Source: Candidatus Multivoradales bacterium
Lineage (GTDB): Bacteria > Acidobacteriota > Thermoanaerobaculia > Multivoradales > J023
Direction: 5' to 3'
Length of the DNA stretch: 64,000 nt
Assembly: GCA_965248925.1 (NCBI GenBank)
Contig: CBDFLE010000006.1
Span: 2,784,001 to 2,848,000 of the forward strand
The translations under genes and the position numbers were made by a program. Each line of letters starts with the position of its first letter. Position 1 is the first letter of the stretch. Below are positions 2,861 through 44,221 of this stretch, piece by piece. The notes under the pieces were generated by a model. That model was not told the origin of the DNA and ran no database searches. It was given only the letters and a program-made list of their open reading frames with translations.

Positions 2861-4510
2861 ATGGAAACCGACATCGACACATTGCAAACCGAGCTTGCCG
2901 AGCCCGGCGGAGATTACGCCGCCGCGGTCGCCAAAGCCGAGGTGGAAGAGCAAGCTGCTCGGCAGATGGCGGCCGACTACGGGCTCGAATTTGTCGATAT
3001 GCGCAATTTCCGGATCCAGAACGACCTGTTTCGCCGGATTCCGTTCGAGCACATGTTGAAGTACTCGTTCATCCCCGAACGCCAAGTCGACGGTCGCTTG
3101 GTGGTGGTGATGGCCGATCCTACCGATGTGCGCAAGGTCGACCAGCTGGAGCTGTTGCTCGGCTTGCCGGTAGAGCCGCGGGTGGGAGCGCTGTCGGCGA
3201 TCGAAGACATTCTGCAAAAGTCCGATAGCACCCAGCGATTGGTCGAGGAGGCCACCGCCGGGCTGGTCATGGTCAAGGGCGATGGCGACGACGAGGATAT
3301 GTCCCTCGAGTCTCTGACCCAGGACGATTCGAGTCCGATCATCAAGCTCATCGACTCGACCCTGTACAACGCCATTCAGCGCCGCGCCAGCGATATTCAC
3401 GTCGAGACCGGCGAGAACGAAGTCAACATCAAGTACCGCATCGATGGCGCCCTCTACCGGGCGATGGACACCATCGACAAGAGTCATCACCAGACCATCA
3501 TCAGCCGTATCAAGGTGATGTCGGAACTCGACATCGCCGAAAAGCGCATCCCGCAGGATGGCCGCTTCAAGCTCCGCCTGCGCGGTCGCACGATCGATTT
3601 TCGCGTCTCCATTCTGCCGACGGTGCACGGTGAGGATTGCGTTATTCGTATCCTCGACAAGGAGTCAATGAACAAGGAGTTCAAGAGCCTTCGGCTCGAT
3701 ATCTTGGGCTTCGACACCGGCACCATGGCGAAGATGCGCAAGTTCATCCGCGAGCCCTATGGCATGGTTCTGGTCACCGGGCCCACCGGTTCGGGAAAGA
3801 CCACGACCTTGTATGCCTGCTTGTCGGAGATCCAGTCGCCCGAGGACAAGATCATCACCATCGAAGACCCGGTCGAGTACCAGCTCGCCGGGATCTCGCA
3901 GATTCCAGTGAACGAAAAGAAGGGCCTGACTTTCGCCCGCGGCCTGCGTTCGGTCTTGCGCCACGACCCGGACAAGATCATGGTGGGCGAGATTCGCGAC
4001 GAGGAGACTGCCCAGATCGCCATCCAGTCGGCGCTCACCGGCCACTTGGTGTTCACTACCGTGCATGCCAACAACGTGGTCGATGTGCTGGGTCGCTTCC
4101 TCAACATGAAGGTCGACCTGTACAATTTTGTCTCGGCGCTGAATTGCGTCCTGGCGCAGCGCTTGGTACGCCGGATCTGCGATCATTGCAAGCAGCCGGT
4201 GAAAGTGTCCGAAGAATTGCTGGTCGACAGCGCCTTGAACCCCGACATCTATCGTGAGGTGACCTTCTATGAGGGGGCGGGCTGCATCGAATGCAATGGC
4301 ACCGGCTACATGGGCCGCCTGGCGGTCTCAGAGTTGTTGGATTTGTCTGATCATATCCGCGAGCTGATCTTGTCGCGGCGGCCGGCGTCGGAAATCCGTC
4401 GAGTGGCTAAAGAAGAAGGAATGAGCTTCCTGCGCGAATCGGCGCTAGAGAAGGTCTTTCAGGGAGTGACGACGCTTCGTGAAGTCAATAAGGTTACCTT
4501 CGTGGACTGA
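2861..4510 (+). CDS. pilB: GspE/PilB assembly ATPase
   Basis: RRASDIHVE, Walker A GPTGSGKTT, TIEDPVE, LRHDPDKIMVGEIRD, Zn motif CDHC...CIEC. Confidence 0.95.
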   Translation: METDIDTLQTELAEPGGDYAAAVAKAEVEEQAARQMAADYGLEFVDMRNFRIQNDLFRRIPFEHMLKYSFIPERQVDGRLVVVMADPTDVRKVDQLELLLGLPVEPRVGALSAIEDILQKSDSTQRLVEEATAGLVMVKGDGDDEDMSLESLTQDDSSPIIKLIDSTLYNAIQRRASDIHVETGENEVNIKYRIDGALYRAMDTIDKSHHQTIISRIKVMSELDIAEKRIPQDGRFKLRLRGRTIDFRVSILPTVHGEDCVIRILDKESMNKEFKSLRLDILGFDTGTMAKMRKFIREPYGMVLVTGPTGSGKTTTLYACLSEIQSPEDKIITIEDPVEYQLAGISQIPVNEKKGLTFARGLRSVLRHDPDKIMVGEIRDEETAQIAIQSALTGHLVFTTVHANNVVDVLGRFLNMKVDLYNFVSALNCVLAQRLVRRICDHCKQPVKVSEELLVDSALNPDIYREVTFYEGAGCIECNGTGYMGRLAVSELLDLSDHIRELILSRRPASEIRRVAKEEGMSFLRESALEKVFQGVTTLREVNKVTFVD

Positions 4511-35320: not shown

Positions 35321-36535
35321 TCAGTCTGCTTGAGCGATCGCCGTCCGCAGCTTGGCGGCGACCCGTTCGAGGTCCGCGAGAGTCATTTGATCAAACAATG
35401 GCAGCAAGATCGCCTGCTCCTGCGCCAGCTCCGACTCGACCAGCCGCCGGCAGCCATCGGCACCGCAGCTGCAACTGTGATCATTGGTGCGGCCGGTCCC
35501 AGGGGCACAAGACCAGGGCTGTTGCCGATAGGCCGGTTCACGATGAGCACACATGATGCCGCGACGACTGGCGACGCCTGCATCGAGCAAATGTTGCATC
35601 ACCCGGATTTGGTCACACCCCGGCGGCAGCCGCACGCAGAGGCTCTGCCAGTTAGTGCGCGCCCACGGTGGCTCGACCGGCAGCTCGAGACCAGGAATAT
35701 CACCGAGCAGCGCGAAGTACTGCTCGGCCAAAGCTCGGCGGCGCTGGACCACCGCAGGCAGGCGGCCCAGCTGCACCCTCCCCACCGCCGCCTGGATATC
35801 GGTCAGGCGGTAGTTGTAGGCCAGCTCGTCATAGGACTCGAAGACCACCTGGTGGGCGCCGTGGCGCACCGTGTCGGGCACCGTCATGCCGTGATGGCGC
35901 AGGCGGCGAAAGCGCGCATCCCAATCCGCGTCATGGGTCGTCAACATGCCGCCATCGCCGGTGGTCAGCAGTTTGCGAGGATGAAACGAGAAACACGCCA
36001 CCTTGCCATGCGGCCGGCCGATCTTCTGCCACTCGCCCCGCCAATCGATCTCCGAGCCAATCGCACAGGCGGCATCCTCGATCACCGGCAGGCCGTGTTT
36101 CTCGGCGATCGGCAGCAGCCGTGCCAGGTCGGCCGGCATGCCCATCTGGTGGACGGCCAGAATCGCCCGCGTGCGCTCGCCGATCAGTCCTTCGACCTTC
36201 GCTGGGTCCAGGTTGTAGGTCTGGCGTTCTATATCGATAAACACCGGCAGGGCATCGACAAAGCGGATGCAATTGGCGGTGGCGACAAAAGAGTGCGAAA
36301 CGGTGATCACCTCGTCACCCGGCCCCACCCCCGCCGCCAGCAGCGAGAGGTGCAGCGCTGCCGTGCAATTGGCCACCGCGCAAGCATGGCGGGCGCCGAC
36401 AAACGCGGCAAACTCCTCCTCGAACGCCAGCACCCGCGGCCCCTGGGTCACCCAACCCGAGCGCAGCGCCTCGGCCACTGCGTCGGCCTCCTCCTCACCT
36501 AGCAACGGCCGAATAATCGGCAGCGAGTCGCTCAC
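35321..36535 (-). CDS. DegT/DnrJ/EryC1/StrS sugar aminotransferase
   Basis: SGWVTQGP, NCTAALH, IEDAACAIG, SFHPRKLLTTGDGG, YNYRL. Confidence 0.93.
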   Translation of the reverse strand: MSDSLPIIRPLLGEEEADAVAEALRSGWVTQGPRVLAFEEEFAAFVGARHACAVANCTAALHLSLLAAGVGPGDEVITVSHSFVATANCIRFVDALPVFIDIERQTYNLDPAKVEGLIGERTRAILAVHQMGMPADLARLLPIAEKHGLPVIEDAACAIGSEIDWRGEWQKIGRPHGKVACFSFHPRKLLTTGDGGMLTTHDADWDARFRRLRHHGMTVPDTVRHGAHQVVFESYDELAYNYRLTDIQAAVGRVQLGRLPAVVQRRRALAEQYFALLGDIPGLELPVEPPWARTNWQSLCVRLPPGCDQIRVMQHLLDAGVASRRGIMCAHREPAYRQQPWSCAPGTGRTNDHSCSCGADGCRRLVESELAQEQAILLPLFDQMTLADLERVAAKLRTAIAQAD

Positions 36536-37512
36536 CGTCCAGCCTCCCCCGGCTTCGACGCCAGCACCCAATCCACCAGCTGGCGCAAACCCTCCCCCAG
36601 GCCCACCTCAGCTTCAAACCCCAGCACTCGGCGAGCCGCTTCGGTATCAGCTAGCCGGCGCGACACCGGATTCACCGCCCGTTCCTCGCGATACTCCACC
36701 CCCAGCGTAGAGCCCATCACGGCGAGCAGCGCCTCAGCCAGCTGCAGCAAACTGGTTTCAGTGCCCGAGGCGACATTGAACACCTGATCACCAGCCCGGC
36801 CCGCGGCCAGCGCCTTGGCGGCTAGCAAATTGGCGCGGGCGATGTCTTCGATAAAAACAAAGTCCATGGTCTGACAACCGTCGCCAAAGATCAGTGGCGG
36901 CAGGCCAGCACGAATCCGTTCGATCCAGCGGATCAGCACCTCGGTGTAGGCGCCAAAGATGTCCATCCGCGGGCCATAGACGTTGAAATAGCGCAACGCC
37001 ACATAGTCCAGGCCGTACATGTCATTGAAACTGCGCAGTAGGCCCTCGTTGAACACCTTGGCGGCGCCGTAGAGAGTGCGATTGGCATAGGGATGGTGAT
37101 CCTCGCGGGTAGGAAACTCCTCCGCCAGCCCATAGGCCGAGGCTGACGAAGCCGCCACCACCCCCCTCACCCCAGCCTCCACCGCCGCCTCGACGACGTT
37201 GAAGGTGCCATCCACCAGCACCTCGAGCGCCACCCGAGGCTCCTCGGCACAGCGGGTAATGCGGATCGCTGCCTGATGAAACACCAGGTCGATCCCCTCG
37301 GTGGTGCGCCGCAGTAGGTCACGATCGCAGATATTGCCCTCGACAACCGTCACCCGGCCATGGTCCATCGCCCAAGCCAGGTTCTCGCGCCGGCCGCGTG
37401 AGAAGTCGTCCAGGACCACCACTTCGGCGGCATCCTCGCGCATCAGCAGATCGGCAATATGCGAGCCGACCAGGCCCGCACCGCCGGTGATAAGAATTCT
37501 CTTGCCGCGCAT
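36532..37512 (-). CDS. NAD-dependent sugar epimerase/dehydratase
   Basis: TGGAGLVG, YGAAK, LRYFNVYGP, FNVASG. Confidence 0.93.
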   Translation of the reverse strand: MRGKRILITGGAGLVGSHIADLLMREDAAEVVVLDDFSRGRRENLAWAMDHGRVTVVEGNICDRDLLRRTTEGIDLVFHQAAIRITRCAEEPRVALEVLVDGTFNVVEAAVEAGVRGVVAASSASAYGLAEEFPTREDHHPYANRTLYGAAKVFNEGLLRSFNDMYGLDYVALRYFNVYGPRMDIFGAYTEVLIRWIERIRAGLPPLIFGDGCQTMDFVFIEDIARANLLAAKALAAGRAGDQVFNVASGTETSLLQLAEALLAVMGSTLGVEYREERAVNPVSRRLADTEAARRVLGFEAEVGLGEGLRQLVDWVLASKPGEAGR

Positions 37513-37771
37513 CTTTCTCCCCTCGCTGGGATTCTCTGGGTGGTTGTTCCGGAGGGGGGCAGTTTATACCTCTGGGGGGTTGGGGTGGTGGGTGCCTGGA
37601 TCATGAAAACGAAGCTCAAGCAGTGTCGACTGGTTCAGTTGCGGCAGTGGGCGGTCTCGGACTCAGATCTGGTGTTACATTTTCGGCTAACAGTGGTGCG
37701 TTGCTGCTGCCACTTGCGCTGTAACTGAGCATGAGCATCAGCATCAGCATCAGATGTTGGGAGGGGCACGG

Positions 37772-38626
37772 GTGCTGAAAAATATCCTGGTCCTCGGTGC
37801 CGGAACCTTGATCATTGGCCTCTTGATCTTGGATCTTCTAACAACCCTTGCCCCGAACGATTTCCAGACTTCCTGGCAAGAACCTCCGGGCGGCTCGACC
37901 TATCGTGCCGATGTCGAGATCCAGCGGCTTCGCTTTGACCAGATACACGGCACGCTGCGAGCGGTACTTGGACTTGTCTTGGTACGGTCGGCTCAAGATG
38001 ACGAGATTTCGAAGTTCAGTTTCAGTTTGCAGAGTTCCGGCAGCGAAGGGACCACTTACTGGTTGCCATATCCGGAAACCTGGCCGATGCCGGGTACTAC
38101 TTGGGAAGAGATTCGCGGCGAAGAGAGCTTCGACGTTCTCGAGGCCAGTCAGGAAATGACGCTGTTTGTCAACCAGAGAACTCGCCAAACGTTATATCCG
38201 TTTGATGATATTACTCTGCGATTTCTCCCCAGAGGATTCGTTGACGGCGGGGTACTTGATCCGGATCTGTGGGTCCACAGTTTTTCAGTTAGTCTTTCAG
38301 ACCCAAACTTCCACTTGCTCTGCTCGGTTGATGAGAGTGAGGTTGTTTGTCAACTGAAGCGAAGCGCCTTCGTTCGCATGATTAGCGTGGCATTGCTGGC
38401 CTGTGTGTTGGTGTTTTATTTCTATCTATTCCGACTGACCAGTCGTGACGAATTACTTGCCAAGACGTTGGGCTTCATGGGCGCACTCTGGGGTGTTCGC
38501 TCGGTGCTAGTTCCGCGCTCTTTGGCTGTTTTTCCCTCTTTGATCGATTACGTCGTGTTGATCCTTTTCTTTGTCTTGTTTCTAACCGTCATCGCAACTG
38601 TTCAGCCTGCCAGGCCTAACCCATAG
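37772..38626 (+). CDS. Membrane protein resembling pentameric ligand-gated ion channels (DUF4436-like topology)
   Basis: N-terminal TM, beta-rich domain with YPFD, LKR, three C-terminal TMs with P...PSLIDY; GGAGGGG RBS before GTG; visibly lower GC. Confidence 0.55.
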   Translation: MLKNILVLGAGTLIIGLLILDLLTTLAPNDFQTSWQEPPGGSTYRADVEIQRLRFDQIHGTLRAVLGLVLVRSAQDDEISKFSFSLQSSGSEGTTYWLPYPETWPMPGTTWEEIRGEESFDVLEASQEMTLFVNQRTRQTLYPFDDITLRFLPRGFVDGGVLDPDLWVHSFSVSLSDPNFHLLCSVDESEVVCQLKRSAFVRMISVALLACVLVFYFYLFRLTSRDELLAKTLGFMGALWGVRSVLVPRSLAVFPSLIDYVVLILFFVLFLTVIATVQPARPNP

Positions 38627-38636
38627 GAGGGAAAAC

Positions 38637-39170
38637 ATGAAGAATACGTCATTTTTTGTACTGCTGATTGCCTTAGCTGGGTGGGGCGTCAGCACCTTGG
38701 CTCAGGATCAGGAGATGCCCTTGGGCAAGACTTCGCTTGAGCTTCCCACAACCCTGGCGATCGAGTCCGAGGAAGTATCGAAGCTCCGGGTGGTCAGAGG
38801 CCGAGAAATCGCATTCGTGCAGAGGGACGATGGAGACTATGTGCTCAACAAAATGCTGCCCTACGGTGCGATTGTCGACGATCCGAAAACAAAGCGACCG
38901 CGCAACGGTCTAATTGTGGAGTATCAGATCTATGCCCAAGACGATCAAGCATTCTTCGTTGAGATAATTGTTCCGAGAATGCAACACAAAGGTCTAGCGG
39001 ATAGCGAATTCGAAGCGAGTCTCTCAGGTAACGCACTAGTTGATGACTTGGTCTCGGCTTTGGCACTCCAAGTAAGATCTGGTACGCACAGCTGCGCTAA
39101 CGGTCGGGTTTGTGTCAAGACCCGTAAAGTCGACGGGGTTGAAAAGTGTTGCCGATACAAATGTCGATGA
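38637..39170 (+). CDS. Secreted protein with Cys-rich basic C-terminal tail
   Basis: AGGAGG RBS, signal peptide, tail CANGRVCVKTRKVDGVEKCCRYKCR. Confidence 0.75.
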   Translation: MKNTSFFVLLIALAGWGVSTLAQDQEMPLGKTSLELPTTLAIESEEVSKLRVVRGREIAFVQRDDGDYVLNKMLPYGAIVDDPKTKRPRNGLIVEYQIYAQDDQAFFVEIIVPRMQHKGLADSEFEASLSGNALVDDLVSALALQVRSGTHSCANGRVCVKTRKVDGVEKCCRYKCR

Positions 39171-39401
39171 ACGAGAGGGGTGCGGCTGATCATCTGTTGG
39201 AGCAGCCGACGGCAGACCTGGTGCCGCCGGCCTGACTGCCCGGACCAAGTGCCAGCCGATTCTCGGCCATTGCGGCGAGTAGACCTGAAGCCGTCAGTGC
39301 AAACCCACGAAGCTTGCCGAGGGCGATCTATCCGCCCAAATGTCTCTGAAGAAGACGGCGGCAGGGAATAGGTACCAGCCGATTCGCAGCCACCTTGGTG
39401 G

Positions 39402-39791
39402 TCATTGGCCTGTAGCCGCGGAAACCGCCGCGGCAAGATCGGGTGAACGAGATCTACCGCGCCCACTTGCCGCCGTTCTCAGCGGATTACGAGGAACTTG
39501 CGCTGCCTTGCCCGGTGCCTCCGACGGAGTCAGTTGTATGCGAAGTTCTGCTCCGAGCGCCTTCGCCAGCCGGACCATGGTCATCAGGGTGAAGTTGGCG
39601 TTACCGCGCAGGATCTTGGTGATGTAGGCGGGGGAAGTACCAAGTCGGCGAGCCAACTCCGACCTCGACACCTCTTCCCGTTCCATCAGGCGGAAGATCT
39701 CCTCGGTGAATTCCTGCACGGTGCCGGCGAGCCAATAGTCGTCGTGTCCTTCGGCTCTTTTGTAGAGATCGTCGAAGTTCTTGGCTTTCAT
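39402..39791 (-). CDS. XRE/HTH antitoxin (HigA-like)
   Basis: SRSELARRLGTSPAYITKILRGNANFTLMTMVRLAKALG; downstream of toxin. Confidence 0.85.
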   Translation of the reverse strand: MKAKNFDDLYKRAEGHDDYWLAGTVQEFTEEIFRLMEREEVSRSELARRLGTSPAYITKILRGNANFTLMTMVRLAKALGAELRIQLTPSEAPGKAAQVPRNPLRTAASGRGRSRSPDLAAAVSAATGQ

Positions 39792-39796
39792 CGTCT

Positions 39797-40189
39797 CTAT
39801 CCTTTCATTTTGAGAGCGGCTTGCCCTTTTGCCAAGAAGTACTGGCGTCGGTACTCTTGCGCTCTTTCGATCTCGGTTGCCGGGGTCTTCTGGCGCTTTT
39901 TTACGAAGCCGTGACTACAAATCACCAGCTTGCCCTCGTCGTAGAACCAGAGTACCCGGACTCGGCCCTGGATGAACTCCCAGAGCCCAGGCCCGAGCTG
40001 ATGGGAGATCTCCGTATTGCGTGGCGGGCCGTGGTCAGCGACCCGATCAAGAAGCTTGAGCATCCGACGACCGTCTCTTGCGAGCCCGCCTTCAATTTCT
40101 GCCAGAAACTGCAGAAGCGGGCAGTCACCGCGATCGGTGCAGACCGCCAAGACTTGCCAACCTCCACTTCGGACCCGCCGTAACCTCAT
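39797..40189 (-). CDS. RelE/HigB (Gp49-like) toxin
   Basis: GLWEFIQGRVRVLWFY...SHGFVKKRQKTPATEIERA; GGAGG RBS. Confidence 0.85.
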   Translation of the reverse strand: MRLRRVRSGGWQVLAVCTDRGDCPLLQFLAEIEGGLARDGRRMLKLLDRVADHGPPRNTEISHQLGPGLWEFIQGRVRVLWFYDEGKLVICSHGFVKKRQKTPATEIERAQEYRRQYFLAKGQAALKMKG

Positions 40190-40208
40190 TTTAACCTCCA
40201 GGTTCAAA
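40189..40208. promoter_or_regulatory. Candidate TA autoregulatory operator
   Basis: Imperfect IR TTTTAACCT-CC-AGGTTCAAA over the toxin RBS. Confidence 0.45.
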
Positions 40209-40592
40209 CGGTGGCAAGCAGGATCTTGCTCATTGTCGATCCTGACCGCCCACGAGGGGTTCGCAACGTGCTGCGGCCCAGCCTCCTCAGCTGAGCCAGC
40301 CAAGCCGATATCGCGTATCCTAGAAGGTCTGGAGGTACTGTATGGCGACGACAATCCAATACTACCCTGAGATAGGTGCCAGCCGATTCGCAGCTGCCGA
40401 TTCGCAGCTACTCGGACCTCCGGCCCCTTCGGCCAGGACCCTCTGCCTCCTCTGCACTCTATCCAGCGACCCGTCGCCGATCGTCGAGCTAGCAGAGAGC
40501 TTGTGCGAGAGTGATCGCGTGCGCACAGCCAGCATTGTCGAGAGCGTGGTAGATTGTCCCTCTCCAGGTAATATGCCCGGAGGACGATTCTC

Positions 40593-40874
40593 GTGAGTGG
40601 AGCGAGTACACCGAGCATTGAGTATCCGCCCGAGGTTCTTTGGGCTCTTCAGCAGGCCCCCGAAAAGTTTGCCGCCGAGGCTCGCCTGCTCCTTGCCCTC
40701 AAGCTCTATGAGATGGGCAAGCTGACCACCGGCATGGCGGCTCGGCTTGCTGGGATCCCACGCCTTCGCTTCATCTTCTTGGTGGGCGAACATGGCCTCT
40801 CCCCCTTCGGCGAGGCGCCCGAAGATCTCGAACAAGATCTCGCCGATGCCCGAAGGGCCTGTCGTTGCGAATAA
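40593..40874 (+). CDS. UPF0175 family antitoxin
   Basis: RLLLALKLYEMGKLTTGMAARLAGIPRLRF...EDLEQDL; GGAGG RBS. Confidence 0.85.
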   Translation: MSGASTPSIEYPPEVLWALQQAPEKFAAEARLLLALKLYEMGKLTTGMAARLAGIPRLRFIFLVGEHGLSPFGEAPEDLEQDLADARRACRCE

Positions 40875-40948
40875 CACGCCCCTCGCGGCTCTCTGGGCGA
40901 TCGACCGTCTGGATCTACTGGAGTCTTTGTTCAGCGAGATCCTGATCC
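40846..40948 (+). pseudogene. Truncated DUF3368/PIN-like toxin
   Basis: VVANNTPLAALWAIDRLDLLESLFSEILI resembles the DUF3368 N-terminus; similarity stops at repeat copy 40949. Confidence 0.75.
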
Positions 40949-41110
40949 GAGATAGGTGCCAGCCGATTCTCGGGAGCTTGGTTGAGGTTGTCGGCGGCAA
41001 AAGCCCTAAACGCAGCAGGGGCAGCCCGGCCTGGCCGGCAACTGCCCCGTCTTTCTTCTGCAAAGAAGGAGTGCGGCCCTCGCTAGAGCCGCACCGGGTC
41101 TGAGCGGGTC

Positions 41111-41947
41111 CTACTGACGCTTACCGCACACTGGATTGATGCAGTGGTCGTGGGGGGCGGTGCCGAAGGAGCTGTGGCAGCTCGTCAGAGCGGCGTTGGC
41201 AGTCCAGCAGTCGACGTCTTCAGTGTCGCAGGAGCGGCCTGGGAAGAAATTGGTCGTACCCGGCAGGACCAAGTCGGGGCGGCCATCGCAGTTGGTGTCC
41301 ACCTTGAACGGACTACTCACTTCGAGATCGCCAGGCCCTGCATTGGTGCAGAAACCCATGCCGTCGATGGCCAGGGTCACCGGGTGGGAAACCGGACCGC
41401 GAACTTCGCCAGTCGCAATATTGGTGAAGTTCAGGCATACATTGACCGACAGGTTGCCAGAGAACTTGCCGCAGTTCTCACACCCCAAATCGGCCTTGAT
41501 CTTGGTGGCATCTTGGCACTCACACAGACAGGCACTGACCCGCCAGCTGGTATCACCGGTTGCCGGGCAAAAGACGTTGATGACGTCGTTGCTGAACAGA
41601 TTGAGGGCGCGGATAACGATTGCAGAAGTTACATCGCCGGAGGCGAAGTCGATCGGATCGAGGCGTTCGACCACGGTATCCGCGTTGCCGAGGATGCCCG
41701 GAGGATCGGTCACCAAGGGCGCGCCCTGAAATGTCACCGAACCGGTGAAAGGGGGAGAGCCGGCGCAGAAGAAGCCGGCTGGAATGGGAACGGCGGAAAA
41801 ATCGGCCACGCTCGGCACGGTGCTCGAAGTCTGGAATGCGTCGATGCCGGGGACGATGTACGGGGGTTGGGCGATAGCCGGAGCGCAGAGCAAGGCCACC
41901 ACAGTCAGGCTAAAGCAAAGCCTAATCCAAGAATTTCTCATGAGCAT
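41111..41947 (-). CDS. Secreted cysteine-rich hypothetical protein
   Basis: AGGAGG RBS, signal peptide ending AIA|Q, 15 Cys in mature part. Confidence 0.8.
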   Translation of the reverse strand: MLMRNSWIRLCFSLTVVALLCAPAIAQPPYIVPGIDAFQTSSTVPSVADFSAVPIPAGFFCAGSPPFTGSVTFQGAPLVTDPPGILGNADTVVERLDPIDFASGDVTSAIVIRALNLFSNDVINVFCPATGDTSWRVSACLCECQDATKIKADLGCENCGKFSGNLSVNVCLNFTNIATGEVRGPVSHPVTLAIDGMGFCTNAGPGDLEVSSPFKVDTNCDGRPDLVLPGTTNFFPGRSCDTEDVDCWTANAALTSCHSSFGTAPHDHCINPVCGKRQ

Positions 41948-42330
41948 ATCCTCCTAAATTTGTCGAAAAACAAAAGCATCCGCGAAGCTAGGCCTCGGGT
42001 CAGACGGATGCCGGTTCAGCAATCTGACCAGCGCGCATTGTAGAGATCTTTAGTGAACACCCACTTCTTTGAACTTGCGGAATGCAGAGCGTTATCATCT
42101 CAACTAATTGCCTGGAACCGGGCTGCTGGGGCTCGCCGCAGAGAGCCTCTGATCCCCCCTAGGAGGTGGCTGCCGAGGCTTTGTTAGAGACTAGGCGCGG
42201 ATTAGGTGCCGCCGGAATAGGTGCCAGCTGACTCGCGGCTACCCTGGGAAGGGCAGCAGAAGCGGGGCGGTATAGTGTCGCCAGCTCGATTCCCAACCCG
42301 CTACCTGCAAGCGACCCGAGATCCTCGTTG

Positions 42331-43296
42331 ATGAACCAAGAGCCCCTCCCCCCGTCCTCGCCGGAGCTAACCCTCGTCACCCCGGCTTACGATGAAGAGC
42401 GCAATCTGCCGCTGCTCTACGAGCGCCTGTGCGTGGCGCTCGACGGCGTCGATTGGGAGTGGGTGGTGGTGGACGATCATTCCACCGATCGAACTTTCGC
42501 GGTGGTGCAATCACTGGCGGCGGCGGATCCGCGGGTGCGGGGAATTCGCCTGTCGCGCAATTGTGGTTCGCACAGCTCGGTTCAGTGTGGAATCGAGCAC
42601 GCCCGCGGGGCGGGTGTGGTGGTCATGGCCTCGGATCTACAGGATCCGCCGGAGTCGATTCCGCAGCTGCTGGTCGAATGGCGGGCGGGGGCGCAGGTGG
42701 TGTGGGCGGTGCGCGAGGAACGCCAGGGCGAATCGCTGGCCACCCGCGGTTCATCGCGGGTCTACCATTGGATGATGCGCCATGTGGTTGGGATGAAGGA
42801 GCTGCCGTCAACCGGCGCTGACTTCTTTCTGATCGACCGGCTAGTGGTCGATGCCTTAGCGAGATTCCAGGAGCGCAATGGCAGCATCTTCACCCTGATC
42901 ACCTGGCTTGGTTTCCGTCAGACCTCTATCTTCTACAGCAAGGCGGCGCGGGCTCACGGCAGCTCGAAGTGGACGCTCGAGAAGAAAGTCAAACTGGCGT
43001 TGGACTCGGTGTTGTCGTTCAGTTACCTGCCGATCCGGCTAATCTCCTACCTCGGCATCACGGTGGCCTTTTTCGGCTTGCTCTACGCCAGCGCGGTGAT
43101 TTACAACGCCCTGACCGGCGCCCCGGCCGATGGTTGGTCGTCGTTGATGGTGGTGGTGCTGGTACTCGGTGGCATGCAGATGACGATGATGGGAGTGCTC
43201 GGCGAGTATCTCTGGCGGGCGCTCGACGAGGCCCGCCGCCGCCCTCTCTACACTGTTGAAGCCACTACCCTTCTTCAGCGAGGGGGAGGTAGTTGA
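42331..43296 (+). CDS. GT2 polyprenol-phosphate glycosyltransferase (GtrB/ArnC-like)
   Basis: PAYDE, VDDHSTD, LSRNCG, DLQDPPE, two C-terminal TMs, GEYLWR...RPLY. Confidence 0.9.
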   Translation: MNQEPLPPSSPELTLVTPAYDEERNLPLLYERLCVALDGVDWEWVVVDDHSTDRTFAVVQSLAAADPRVRGIRLSRNCGSHSSVQCGIEHARGAGVVVMASDLQDPPESIPQLLVEWRAGAQVVWAVREERQGESLATRGSSRVYHWMMRHVVGMKELPSTGADFFLIDRLVVDALARFQERNGSIFTLITWLGFRQTSIFYSKAARAHGSSKWTLEKKVKLALDSVLSFSYLPIRLISYLGITVAFFGLLYASAVIYNALTGAPADGWSSLMVVVLVLGGMQMTMMGVLGEYLWRALDEARRRPLYTVEATTLLQRGGGS

Positions 43297-44221
43297 GTAG
43301 CAGACCGCCAGCGCAGGCCAGCGACAAGACCACGGTGACGGCCCGTGCCAGCATGACGGTCTCAGCACCACCACCGATTGCCAGCTGTTGGTAGAGCACC
43401 GCCGCTACCGAATCGGTCACTCCAAGGGCCATTGGCGTCGTCGGGATGCTGGATGCAAGTTGAATCGCTGGCGCTACCTGGAGCACTTGCCGTGGCGAAA
43501 CTCCTAAACCAAGGGCCGCGAATGCGCACCAGGAGGCGAAGAAGCTGAACAGATGGCCCACTAATGACAGCAGGAAGGCGAAGGTGAGGACACCGGGCTG
43601 CCGGCGATAGTCGGCAAGGGCCCGCGACAGGGAGTGCAACCAGCTGCCGGCCGGCGGGCGTCCAAGACGTTGGATCAACGCCAAGGCAATCACGGCGGCC
43701 AGCAGCGCCAGGGCGCTCCAGCTGAGAATCTGCCGGCCGAGCTGGCCGCCAAGACCAACCATGAGGCGGCTGGAGAGCACCGCCATCAGCAGCAGCAGGG
43801 CGCCGAGACCGAGCAGGCGGTCGATCACCAAGCTCGAAATCAGCCGCCCCTTGCGTTGCTTGGCTAGCGGCGCAAGGTAGTAGATCTTGGCGCCGTCCAG
43901 GCCCAGGCCAGAGGGCAGGAAGGTGTTGCTGAACATGCCGATCAAGCCGATCTGCAGAGCCGCTCCGGCGCTCAGCTCGAAGCCTTGGGCGCGCACTAAG
44001 CGCAACCAGCGCCAGACCTGGCAGACCACGGAGAGAATCAAGCCCGCCACCAAACCGGCCAACGGCCAGCCTGGGCGTAAGGCCAGCAAGGTGGCGAAAT
44101 CGAATCGGCTGCTGCTGACCAACCAGGCGATTAGGATCCCAGCCAAGACCAGCTTGAGTGCCGTGCCGAGCCAGCCCAAGCGTGTACCGGCCGGGGGACT
44201 TGGGGGCAGCGAAGCCCTCAC
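43265..44221 (-). CDS. LPG synthase TM / flippase-like membrane protein
   Basis: WRW, FSNTFLPSGLGLD, DRLLGL, IPTTPMALGV. Confidence 0.8.
   Translation of the reverse strand: MRASLPPSPPAGTRLGWLGTALKLVLAGILIAWLVSSSRFDFATLLALRPGWPLAGLVAGLILSVVCQVWRWLRLVRAQGFELSAGAALQIGLIGMFSNTFLPSGLGLDGAKIYYLAPLAKQRKGRLISSLVIDRLLGLGALLLLMAVLSSRLMVGLGGQLGRQILSWSALALLAAVIALALIQRLGRPPAGSWLHSLSRALADYRRQPGVLTFAFLLSLVGHLFSFFASWCAFAALGLGVSPRQVLQVAPAIQLASSIPTTPMALGVTDSVAAVLYQQLAIGGGAETVMLARAVTVVLSLACAGGLLLNYLPLAEEG

Follow-up and report, generated by a model that had tools for sequence, protein, structure and literature searches.

A short direct repeat divides a low-GC island in the genome of Candidatus Multivoradales bacterium (Acidobacteriota; Thermoanaerobaculia; GenBank assembly GCA_965248925.1) into compact gene modules. 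The stretch analyzed, called the window here, is 64,000 nucleotides (nt) long (contig CBDFLE010000006.1, positions 2,784,001 to 2,848,000, forward strand), and the coordinates below are those of the window unless another contig (C) or locus (L) is named. On the evidence of sequence comparison, the 18-mer, ATAGGTGCCAGCCGATTC, is a local form of a conserved site of ~15 nt, GGTGCC|AGCCGATTC. Identification of this site as the terminal inverted repeat (TIR), an end like that of a repetitive extragenic palindrome (REP), of a multicopy family of Y1/HUH transposases of ~310 to 330 amino acids (aa) is well supported, as is the assignment of the five window copies as orphan ends without a transposase gene of their own. 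We place at about 0.7 the probability of the reading as a whole, in which the 18-mer would be an end of the Y1/HUH family, the window copies would be orphans, and family enzymes would act on them, with DNA between like-oriented copies being lost or gained.

Both strands of the window were scanned for ATAGGTGCCAGCCGATTC at up to 3 mismatches, with 100 shuffled sequences as a control. Five copies were found, all on the + strand (0.03 expected by chance; 0 of 100 shuffles reached five), with no sixth match on either strand. Copy 1 (39245-39262) has 3 mismatches, all in its head, and an intact core, GTGCCAGCCGATTC; it begins 75 nt downstream of the stop codon of a gene for a 177-aa protein. Copy 2 (39368-39385; 1 mismatch) lies just beyond the 3' end of a helix-turn-helix (HTH) antitoxin gene, copies 3 (40372-40389) and 4 (40952-40969) are exact, and copy 5 (42217-42234) has 2 mismatches. 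The copies are singlets in the same orientation, one per spacer, and have no inverted partners in the window scan. An 11-mer, GGTGCCGCCGG, occurs exactly twice in the window (expected, 0.15), at 39220 and 42205. An initial annotation, made from the letters of the window, had described five same-orientation copies, no full copy elsewhere in the window, and the same 11-mer before the first and last copies; the scan agrees with all of this, with the copy starts shifted by 2 to 3 nt. A degenerate inverted copy that it had placed at 42104-42120 did not hold up: the best register (42105) has 7 mismatches in 18 positions, and 169 window positions are equally close, so the match is attributed to chance.

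The unit consists of a head ending in GGTGCC and a tail that reads A[GC]CCGATTC and continues for a few bases. Just ahead of GTGCC, the 4 nt differ among genomes: ATAG in the source genome, with CGAG, AGAG, GCAG, and GTAG also seen. Head and tail are each duplicated without the other, and the island shows both forms. The two 11-mers are head-only units: at 39220-39230 (+ strand), 25 nt before copy 1, GGTGCC is followed by GCCGG instead of the tail, and copy 5 is preceded by AGGTGCC plus GCCGG (42204-42215). In copy 3, the 14-nt tail GCCGATTCGCAGCT stands in tandem duplicate (40382-40395 and 40396-40409; whole region, 40372-40409). Head-only duplications within 30 nt upstream of full units were counted at 17 of 91 units, against 4 of 91 at a control distance, over partly redundant loci that include at least eight distinct ones; the corresponding count in the source genome was 3 of 23, against 0. 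A second tail-only case is found in G027, a genome of another family in the same order, where one locus has an extra 15-nt tail directly after GGTGCC that is absent from the 95%-identical G202. We infer from these sequences a break-and-join point after GGTGCC.

The core, GGTGCCAGCCGATTC, recurs some 20 to 25 times genome-wide, beyond the island. The genome (7.98 Mb) contains 25 copies of the 16-mer with no more than 1 mismatch (15 forward, 10 reverse) versus 0 for a reversed control; for the 20-mer, the counts are 25 versus 0 at up to 3 mismatches and 48 versus 12 at up to 4. Some copies are in tandem at a spacing of 33 to 35 nt (e.g., C6:4208368-4208455). At up to 2 mismatches, the 18-mer is present in 26 of the 40 other genomes of the order, with up to 42 copies each (G002, 42; G027, 25; G026, 15; G014, 15) and 3 control matches overall; motif totals were 29 in G202 and 20 in G090. 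A scan of the genome and its relatives, as proposed in the initial annotation, finds the motif dispersed in both.

Around Y1 transposase genes the motif follows a rule of orientation. In G005, an open reading frame for a 318-aa Y1 protein (HUH motif, conserved tyrosine) has at least six forward copies of CGAGGTGCCAGCCGATTCGTG upstream and two inverted copies downstream. Within 500 nt of the gene at 30 loci (the best locus of each of 30 genomes), the counts for GGTGCCANCC were 21 upstream and forward, 2 upstream and reverse, 0 downstream and forward, and 12 downstream and reverse. At 71 public loci with at least 300 nt on both flanks, a set that overlaps the 30 loci and so is not independent of them, the corresponding counts for GGTGCCA were 65, 11, 3, and 58, with both ends present at 28 of the 71. 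In 12 of 27 loci, GTGCC is part of the longest inverted repeat shared between upstream and downstream sequence. What comes after GGTGCCA agrees within a locus and differs between loci (e.g., AGCCGATT, ATGCGA.TT, ACCCTTTTT, and AGGCACCTTC). In the initial annotation, the motif had been called a REP-like or recombination site used in trans, and a look for REP-associated tyrosine transposase (RAYT) or IS200-like genes near it had been suggested. A REP-like site used in trans is supported by a core that serves as the inverted terminal repeat of Y1/HUH genes across the order and by intact family members elsewhere in the genome.

The proteins (the G005 open reading frame and its source-genome homologues) score above the Pfam Y1_Tnp cutoff, and their best NCBIfam match, below cutoff, is REP_Tyr_transpos (REP-associated tyrosine transposase). 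In an alignment of six proteins, NH.H and RLRY are conserved in all six, the latter within RLRY[LVI][LI]S[HQ]G. Searched against PDB, a profile of the six matched ISDra2 TnpA (2xm3; 7e-5) and Escherichia coli TnpA-REP (4er8; 0.025); phmmer with a single Y1 protein found no match in PDB. A C-terminal extension of ~170 aa is conserved, in which Pfam detected no HTH family. At an E value of ≤1e-10 the family is present in 35 of 41 genomes, with up to 44 matches per genome, and its public relatives are mostly in bins labelled Acidobacteriota or Thermoanaerobaculia. The source genome has 21 tblastn matches to the family, in units of ~1.4 to 1.5 kb that are 87 to 90% identical and whose similarity ends at the motif. 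Among its intact members there (e.g., C6:2885800-2886744 and C6:3751723-3752667), the first-named, at a distance of ~60 kb, is the nearest to the island and has the end GGTGCCACCCGATTCG, one base off the island core.

The source genome is alone in its genus within the collection, and a glycosyltransferase flanking the island is at best 44% identical elsewhere; with no close relative at hand, G027 was used to compare presence and absence of gene blocks, with one locus (L067) compared in full and another (L183) in part. Other G027 loci were left out: L181 (rearranged, with other short repeats), L182 (73 to 84% identical pieces in different contigs and not one collinear match), and L184 to L192. 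In L067, a Y1 gene is bordered by ends in opposite orientations (forward at 904, reverse at 2110), and three further copies on the - strand (6785, 8454, and 10439) separate three modules: an AbiEii-like pair, a DUF5996 gene with DsbA, and an extra hspR-dnaJ-grpE operon. G202 (96% identical) has a single copy where G027 has two, and the 1,985 bp between them are absent; its flanks match the outer flanks of the G027 copy pair, and the block is bounded to the base by direct copies. G090 (89 to 90% identical) is without DUF5996 together with the copy there; it is also without DsbA through approximately L067 position 11728, where there is no motif.

Within the window, copy 4 truncates a PIN-like toxin gene after codon 34. 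A UPF0175 antitoxin gene (40593-40874, + strand; PF03683, 5.3e-19) overlaps a fragment (40846-40947, + strand) that holds the first 34 codons of its toxin partner. Similarity of the fragment to its paralogues stops at residue 34, and copy 4 with a GAG prefix begins a few nucleotides from the end of that homology. Full-length paralogous toxins beside other UPF0175 genes are ~160 aa long (one open frame has 162 aa), and no trace of the rest of the toxin was found within 37000-44000. Loss or gain of blocks by way of the site finds support in the single exact G027/G202 case and in this truncated toxin gene.

We propose that family enzymes encoded elsewhere in the genome would nick and rejoin one strand at the joint of head and tail after GGTGCC, and that this would let units spread and be partly duplicated. 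Where two copies have like orientation, the DNA that they enclose could be lost, or possibly gained, in one block. The enzymes would have to act in trans on the island copies, which we infer that they do. The modules (two toxin-antitoxin pairs and a secreted protein gene) would be ordinary horizontally acquired genes without a site of their own. The orphan copies lie in spacers within a low-GC accessory patch that is set into a cluster of polysaccharide genes.

Several results weigh against this proposal. Any hairpin in the unit is at most weak: fold z-scores ran from -2.1 to +0.2 over seven stretches, and the proposed stem, formed by the bases beside the core, was 67.1% paired versus 64.1% in shuffles, a value reached by 16 of 500. 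Some covariation (CGA/TCG versus AGA/TCT) is present in the stem; the weak fold scores and a pairing close to that of shuffles make classic hairpin recognition doubtful. In the source genome, the exact AGCC-type site adjoins only broken Y1 genes (C6:2544201-2544386 and C5:1744690-1745226). Presence of a Y1 gene does not track the motif across genomes (23 of 26 motif-bearing versus 11 of 14 motif-free genomes), and co-occurrence was set aside as a nondiscriminating test; G002, which has the most copies (42), gave no Y1 match at an E value of ≤1e-10 in an assembly that is 93% complete and in 640 contigs. In the L067 comparison, only one of three indels is bounded exactly by copies. Another has a copy 33 nt inside its edge, and an indel of 267 nt in G202 versus 44 nt in G027 ends 13 to 45 nt from copy 6785. 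Slippage between 15-nt direct repeats could delete blocks without any enzyme. Finally, the four public runs that hold the island, represented by contigs of one sample, show no variant; they come from one study, possibly the assembly's own source, and none is recorded as RNA.

The rival that survives best is one that we nevertheless hold to be unlikely, namely, that the copies are passive litter: decayed, immobile Y1/REP-like remnants piled up in dispensable low-GC DNA, with no role in module gain or loss. The cut toxin gene and the congener indel would then be unrelated or slippage events. Singlet copies without inverted partners suit such an origin, as do the occurrence of cargo homologues elsewhere without the motif, public runs without a variant, and two of three G027 indels that are not bounded by copies. 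The L183 copy can be read in the same way: it lies in collinear sequence (identity of 95% with G202 and of 81% with G090, whose orthologous spot is too diverged to call the copy), and its place in a stretch common to three genomes means that the site is not confined to variable DNA. What litter explains poorly is the density of the island, which holds 4 of the 19 genome copies at up to 2 mismatches (5 counting copy 1) within 3 kb of an 8-Mb genome. Nor does it readily account for an indel bounded to the base by two direct copies, a toxin homology that stops at copy 4, or the same partitioned layout in another family (G027).

A stronger role for the site is conceivable, although we regard it as improbable to a greater degree than litter: the Y1/HUH family's own end, nicked after GGTGCC, might be a portable recombination site, with DNA between like-oriented copies leaving as a single-stranded circle that has one restored copy and can reinsert at any other copy. 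If so, gene cassettes would be exchanged in Acidobacteriota without an integrase, and the window and G027 islands would be two arrays. The contigs of the four public runs contained no other letters, indels, or true joints at the island, so the circular junctions that the initial annotation had proposed to look for did not appear in that one sample. An apparent joint of 40391 to 39368 (13 letters between) was rejected; its source was the tandem array at C6:4208368-4208455, from which a 146-nt contig mapped on two copies.

A true cassette system, in which the motif would be a dedicated recombination site and modules would be captured at and excised from a resident copy by a nonintegron enzyme, seems to us very improbable. 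Direct copies at every module boundary are what such a system would leave, and the layout recurs in G027, where the block between two copies is absent from G202 with one copy kept and where G090 shows an "empty" state with neither blocks nor motif. HUH enzymes are, moreover, able to begin at a first nick site and finish at a second, which sets free the intervening DNA. The site does not, however, travel with the cargo. At up to 2 mismatches and within 1.5 kb, the motif was absent near homologues of the Cys-rich protein (7 of 7 loci) and of the HigB-like toxin (13 of 13 loci), so the site is not attC-like in the manner of a cassette; at 3 mismatches in 15, two HigB-like loci gave two matches each, which were taken for chance. 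The unit, at 18 to 22 nt and weakly structured, is itself unlike attC, which is an imperfect palindrome of tens of nt found with each cassette. No recombinase gene lies in or beside the island, its modules are on both strands, the low-GC patch begins ~1.8 kb before copy 1, copies also occur in conserved collinear stretches between congeners, and a single exact case was found. Against the integron-like array with a non-attC site described in the initial annotation, as a means of capturing and deleting the island's cargo, stand homologues without the motif, genes on both strands, and a site that is not attC-like; in its favor stand the G027/G202 block bounded exactly by two direct copies and the window toxin gene that ends at a copy.

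That the motif has nothing to do with transposition and serves the host in regulation or structure, as an operator, terminator, or RNA element, is scarcely credible. Several copies elsewhere precede a GC-rich hairpin and T run, and some stand just after stop codons. Against this reading, the island copies have no following hairpin, the orientation rule around Y1 genes is strict, the motif lies at the limit of 87 to 90% identical units, and Rfam gave only two matches in six motif loci including the island, both below the gathering score.

Small gene modules, including toxin-antitoxin pairs, between copies of one short site are known from integron attC cassettes and from the pdif modules of Acinetobacter plasmids. 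The island resembles these in that its small modules, toxin-antitoxin pairs among them, are separated by one short site. It differs in having no IntI or Xer-type gene nearby, in a site that is neither attC- nor dif-like and does not accompany the cargo elsewhere, and in copies that are all direct with genes on both strands, whereas the cassettes of integrons are co-oriented and for the most part promoterless.

The ends of IS200/IS605 insertion sequences (ISs) are not known to have inverted repeats. The family described here shares with them a Y1/HUH catalytic domain, as the profile match to ISDra2 TnpA indicates, and multicopy units of ~1.4 to 1.5 kb. It has inverted copies of one site in place of the subterminal hairpins that Quentin et al. 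2018 (PMC6006769) describe for IS200/IS605, its tyrosine motif differs from the Y---Q given there for class 1, and the protein is twice as long.

The closest likeness in layout is to the Y1 genes of Di Nocera et al. 2013 (PMC3733652), which lie between TIRs that also make up families of dispersed repeats; that paper singles out an Acidobacteria group and gives a TIR motif, GGGGWSAS, shared by most members. As in those TIRtrons (TIRYT), a Y1/HUH gene lies between inverted repeats rather than clear hairpin REPs, and repeat copies are scattered singly, in pairs, and in clusters. By inspection, the core here (GGTGCCA[GC]CC or GG[CG]TGGCACC) does not fit GGGGWSAS. The proteins here are also longer (~320 aa) and multicopy, and no C-terminal HTH was found in them by Pfam, an HTH-like extension at that end being a trait of subclass 2.1.

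REP/RAYT systems (REPtrons and REPINs; PMC3116915, PMC3337134, PMC5581495, and PMC6006769) likewise combine a Y1 enzyme flanked by an inverted short repeat with repeats dispersed between genes and presumably moved in trans. The HUH motif and catalytic tyrosine of the family, its best NCBIfam match to a REP-associated tyrosine transposase, and a REPIN-like doublet in G027 point the same way. REPs are short palindromes (hairpins) with a GT[AG]G foot; the unit here is, in contrast, barely palindromic, and its copies number tens versus hundreds. The enzyme is multicopy and IS-like (21 matches; units 87 to 90% identical) versus single copy and domesticated, RAYTs being typically single copy according to PMC5581495. 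Its RLRY[LV][LI]SHG differs from the class 2 Y---NP reported by Quentin et al. (PMC6006769); repeats listed under subclasses 2.1 and 2.2 in supplement 2 of that paper start with GGTGCC. Class 3 TnpA-Y1 of the same source (Planctomycetes, Acidobacteria, and Proteobacteria; median, 178 aa; YV[VI][AENY]EQ) overlaps in taxonomic range and is described as mixing traits of ISs with those of REPtrons, its flanking structures being "atypical." The CnGA-like letters that precede the head seemed to fit the CnGA foot of class 3; this candidate was rejected, as the class 3 flanking repeats, CnGAGCCGCGACCGT.AGGGAGCGG (PMC6006769, supplement 2, part 7), are unrelated to the motif here. The motif strings occur in no paper of the searchable literature, a search that does not extend to subscription papers and figure-only data.

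The gene content that the initial annotation had assigned to the island, HigBA, UPF0175 with a toxin fragment, and a Cys-rich secreted protein, stands, by Pfam for the families and by paralogue comparison for the fragment. The first module (39402-40189, - strand) comprises a Gp49/HigB-like toxin (39797-40189; PF05973, 3.4e-17) and an HTH_3 antitoxin (39402-39791; PF01381, 1.1e-9). The HigB-like gene had no match at an E value of ≤1e-10 in 23 searched genomes of the source organism's own family, and its best match, 76% identical, is in another family. The Cys-rich secreted protein (278 aa; 41111-41947, - strand) belongs to no Pfam family; at E values of up to 10, Pfam returned nothing for it, for the 37-aa toxin fragment, or for the 177-aa protein. 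Its family is large, patchy, and multigene, with 9 matches in the source genome, at least 12 in some genomes, and members in 40 of 201 genomes of the order, some in tandem (e.g., seven in G036:C53).

Upstream of copy 1 lie two genes of unknown function (37754-39170, + strand) without a Pfam match, one for a membrane-like protein of 290 aa with hydrophobic stretches and one for a secreted-like protein of 177 aa that starts with a signal-like segment and is Cys-rich at its end; the pair occupies the lowest GC content of the patch (49 to 52%). GC content is 49 to 60% across approximately 37400-42300 versus 63 to 68% in the flanks, and its fall begins ~1.8 kb before copy 1, so the island is larger than its repeat-partitioned part. 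The modules look horizontally acquired. Polysaccharide genes flank the patch (epimerase, family-2 glycosyltransferase, LPG_synthase_TM protein, and hexapeptide transferase), with an NAD-dependent epimerase gene of the polysaccharide cluster on the left (36532-37512, - strand) and a family-2 glycosyltransferase gene on the right (42328-43296, + strand). The absence of integrase and transposase genes stated in the initial annotation was borne out: none of the 37 Phage_integrase and none of the 11 Y1_Tnp matches of the genome falls inside the window. A tRNA-linked island was considered and rejected, as the window contains no tRNA gene.

Further observations concern G027 and its congeners. The hspR-dnaJ-grpE operon (L067:8469-10305) is accessory-like, being in G027 and not at this place in G202 or G090; a stretch of its dnaJ is 72% identical elsewhere in G027. 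At L067:10407-10453, a forward and a reverse copy 17 nt apart make an inverted doublet of ~15 bp, the sole REPIN-like pair met. In L181, the motif lies inside a direct repeat of ~60 nt (2830-2890 and 3750-3810) flanking a 919-bp segment; in G202, the second copy is complete, but the first is reduced to its distal part. Short dispersed repeats of 28 to 100 nt abound in the G027 genus.

In the source genome, a second repeat, ATAGGTGCCAGGCACATTATG, has the same head and a small GTGCC/GGCAC palindrome, with 46 copies there and 0 in the 40 relatives. It makes long tandem arrays, with sites at C6:1196590-1198930, C6:1206381-1206651, C6:2177217-2177502, C6:1089093-1090092, C5:1443394-1443527, and L012:6695, and also stands directly after the stop codon of a Y1 paralogue, which is itself preceded by a fragment of a Mg-chelatase/ComM-like gene. 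An exact copy of the island motif at C4:253168 (L001) lies beside an HTH_3 gene and two SymE-like toxin genes, within a unit of ~80 nt with a GC-rich hairpin at its end, to which units at C5:710326 and C6:3642323 are related. The IS load of the genome is very heavy (e.g., C5:696500-701600), including a 1,641-bp element and an element of ~2.6 kb with dozens of copies each, 96 to 100% identical and some nested. A gene for a tyrosine recombinase of ~372 aa has at least 14 full-length copies, several of them 7.5 to 12 kb apart (sites include C5:923200-976003, C6:3501654-3517752, and C4:72331). About 4.5 to 5 kb from five of these genes, a degenerate motif precedes a GC-rich hairpin (GTGCCAACCGTTTCGCAGAAAGCCCGG...) and may thus form part of some larger repeated element. 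Genes for RHS-repeat proteins of ~1,675 aa (L012:10932-15968 and L009:7326-12353) are found between Y1 genes and clusters of repeats; an IS5-like DDE transposase is close by.

These results tie a previously unexplained repeat to a concrete enzyme family, a Y1 family little described in Acidobacteriota that keeps one end sequence of ~15 nt across a whole order. The site marks gene-block differences between close species and a cut gene, which makes it a helpful indicator of genome plasticity for a group represented mainly by metagenome bins. If the enzyme does exchange DNA between direct copies, it would represent a cassette mechanism that works by single-strand nicking and not by an integrase.

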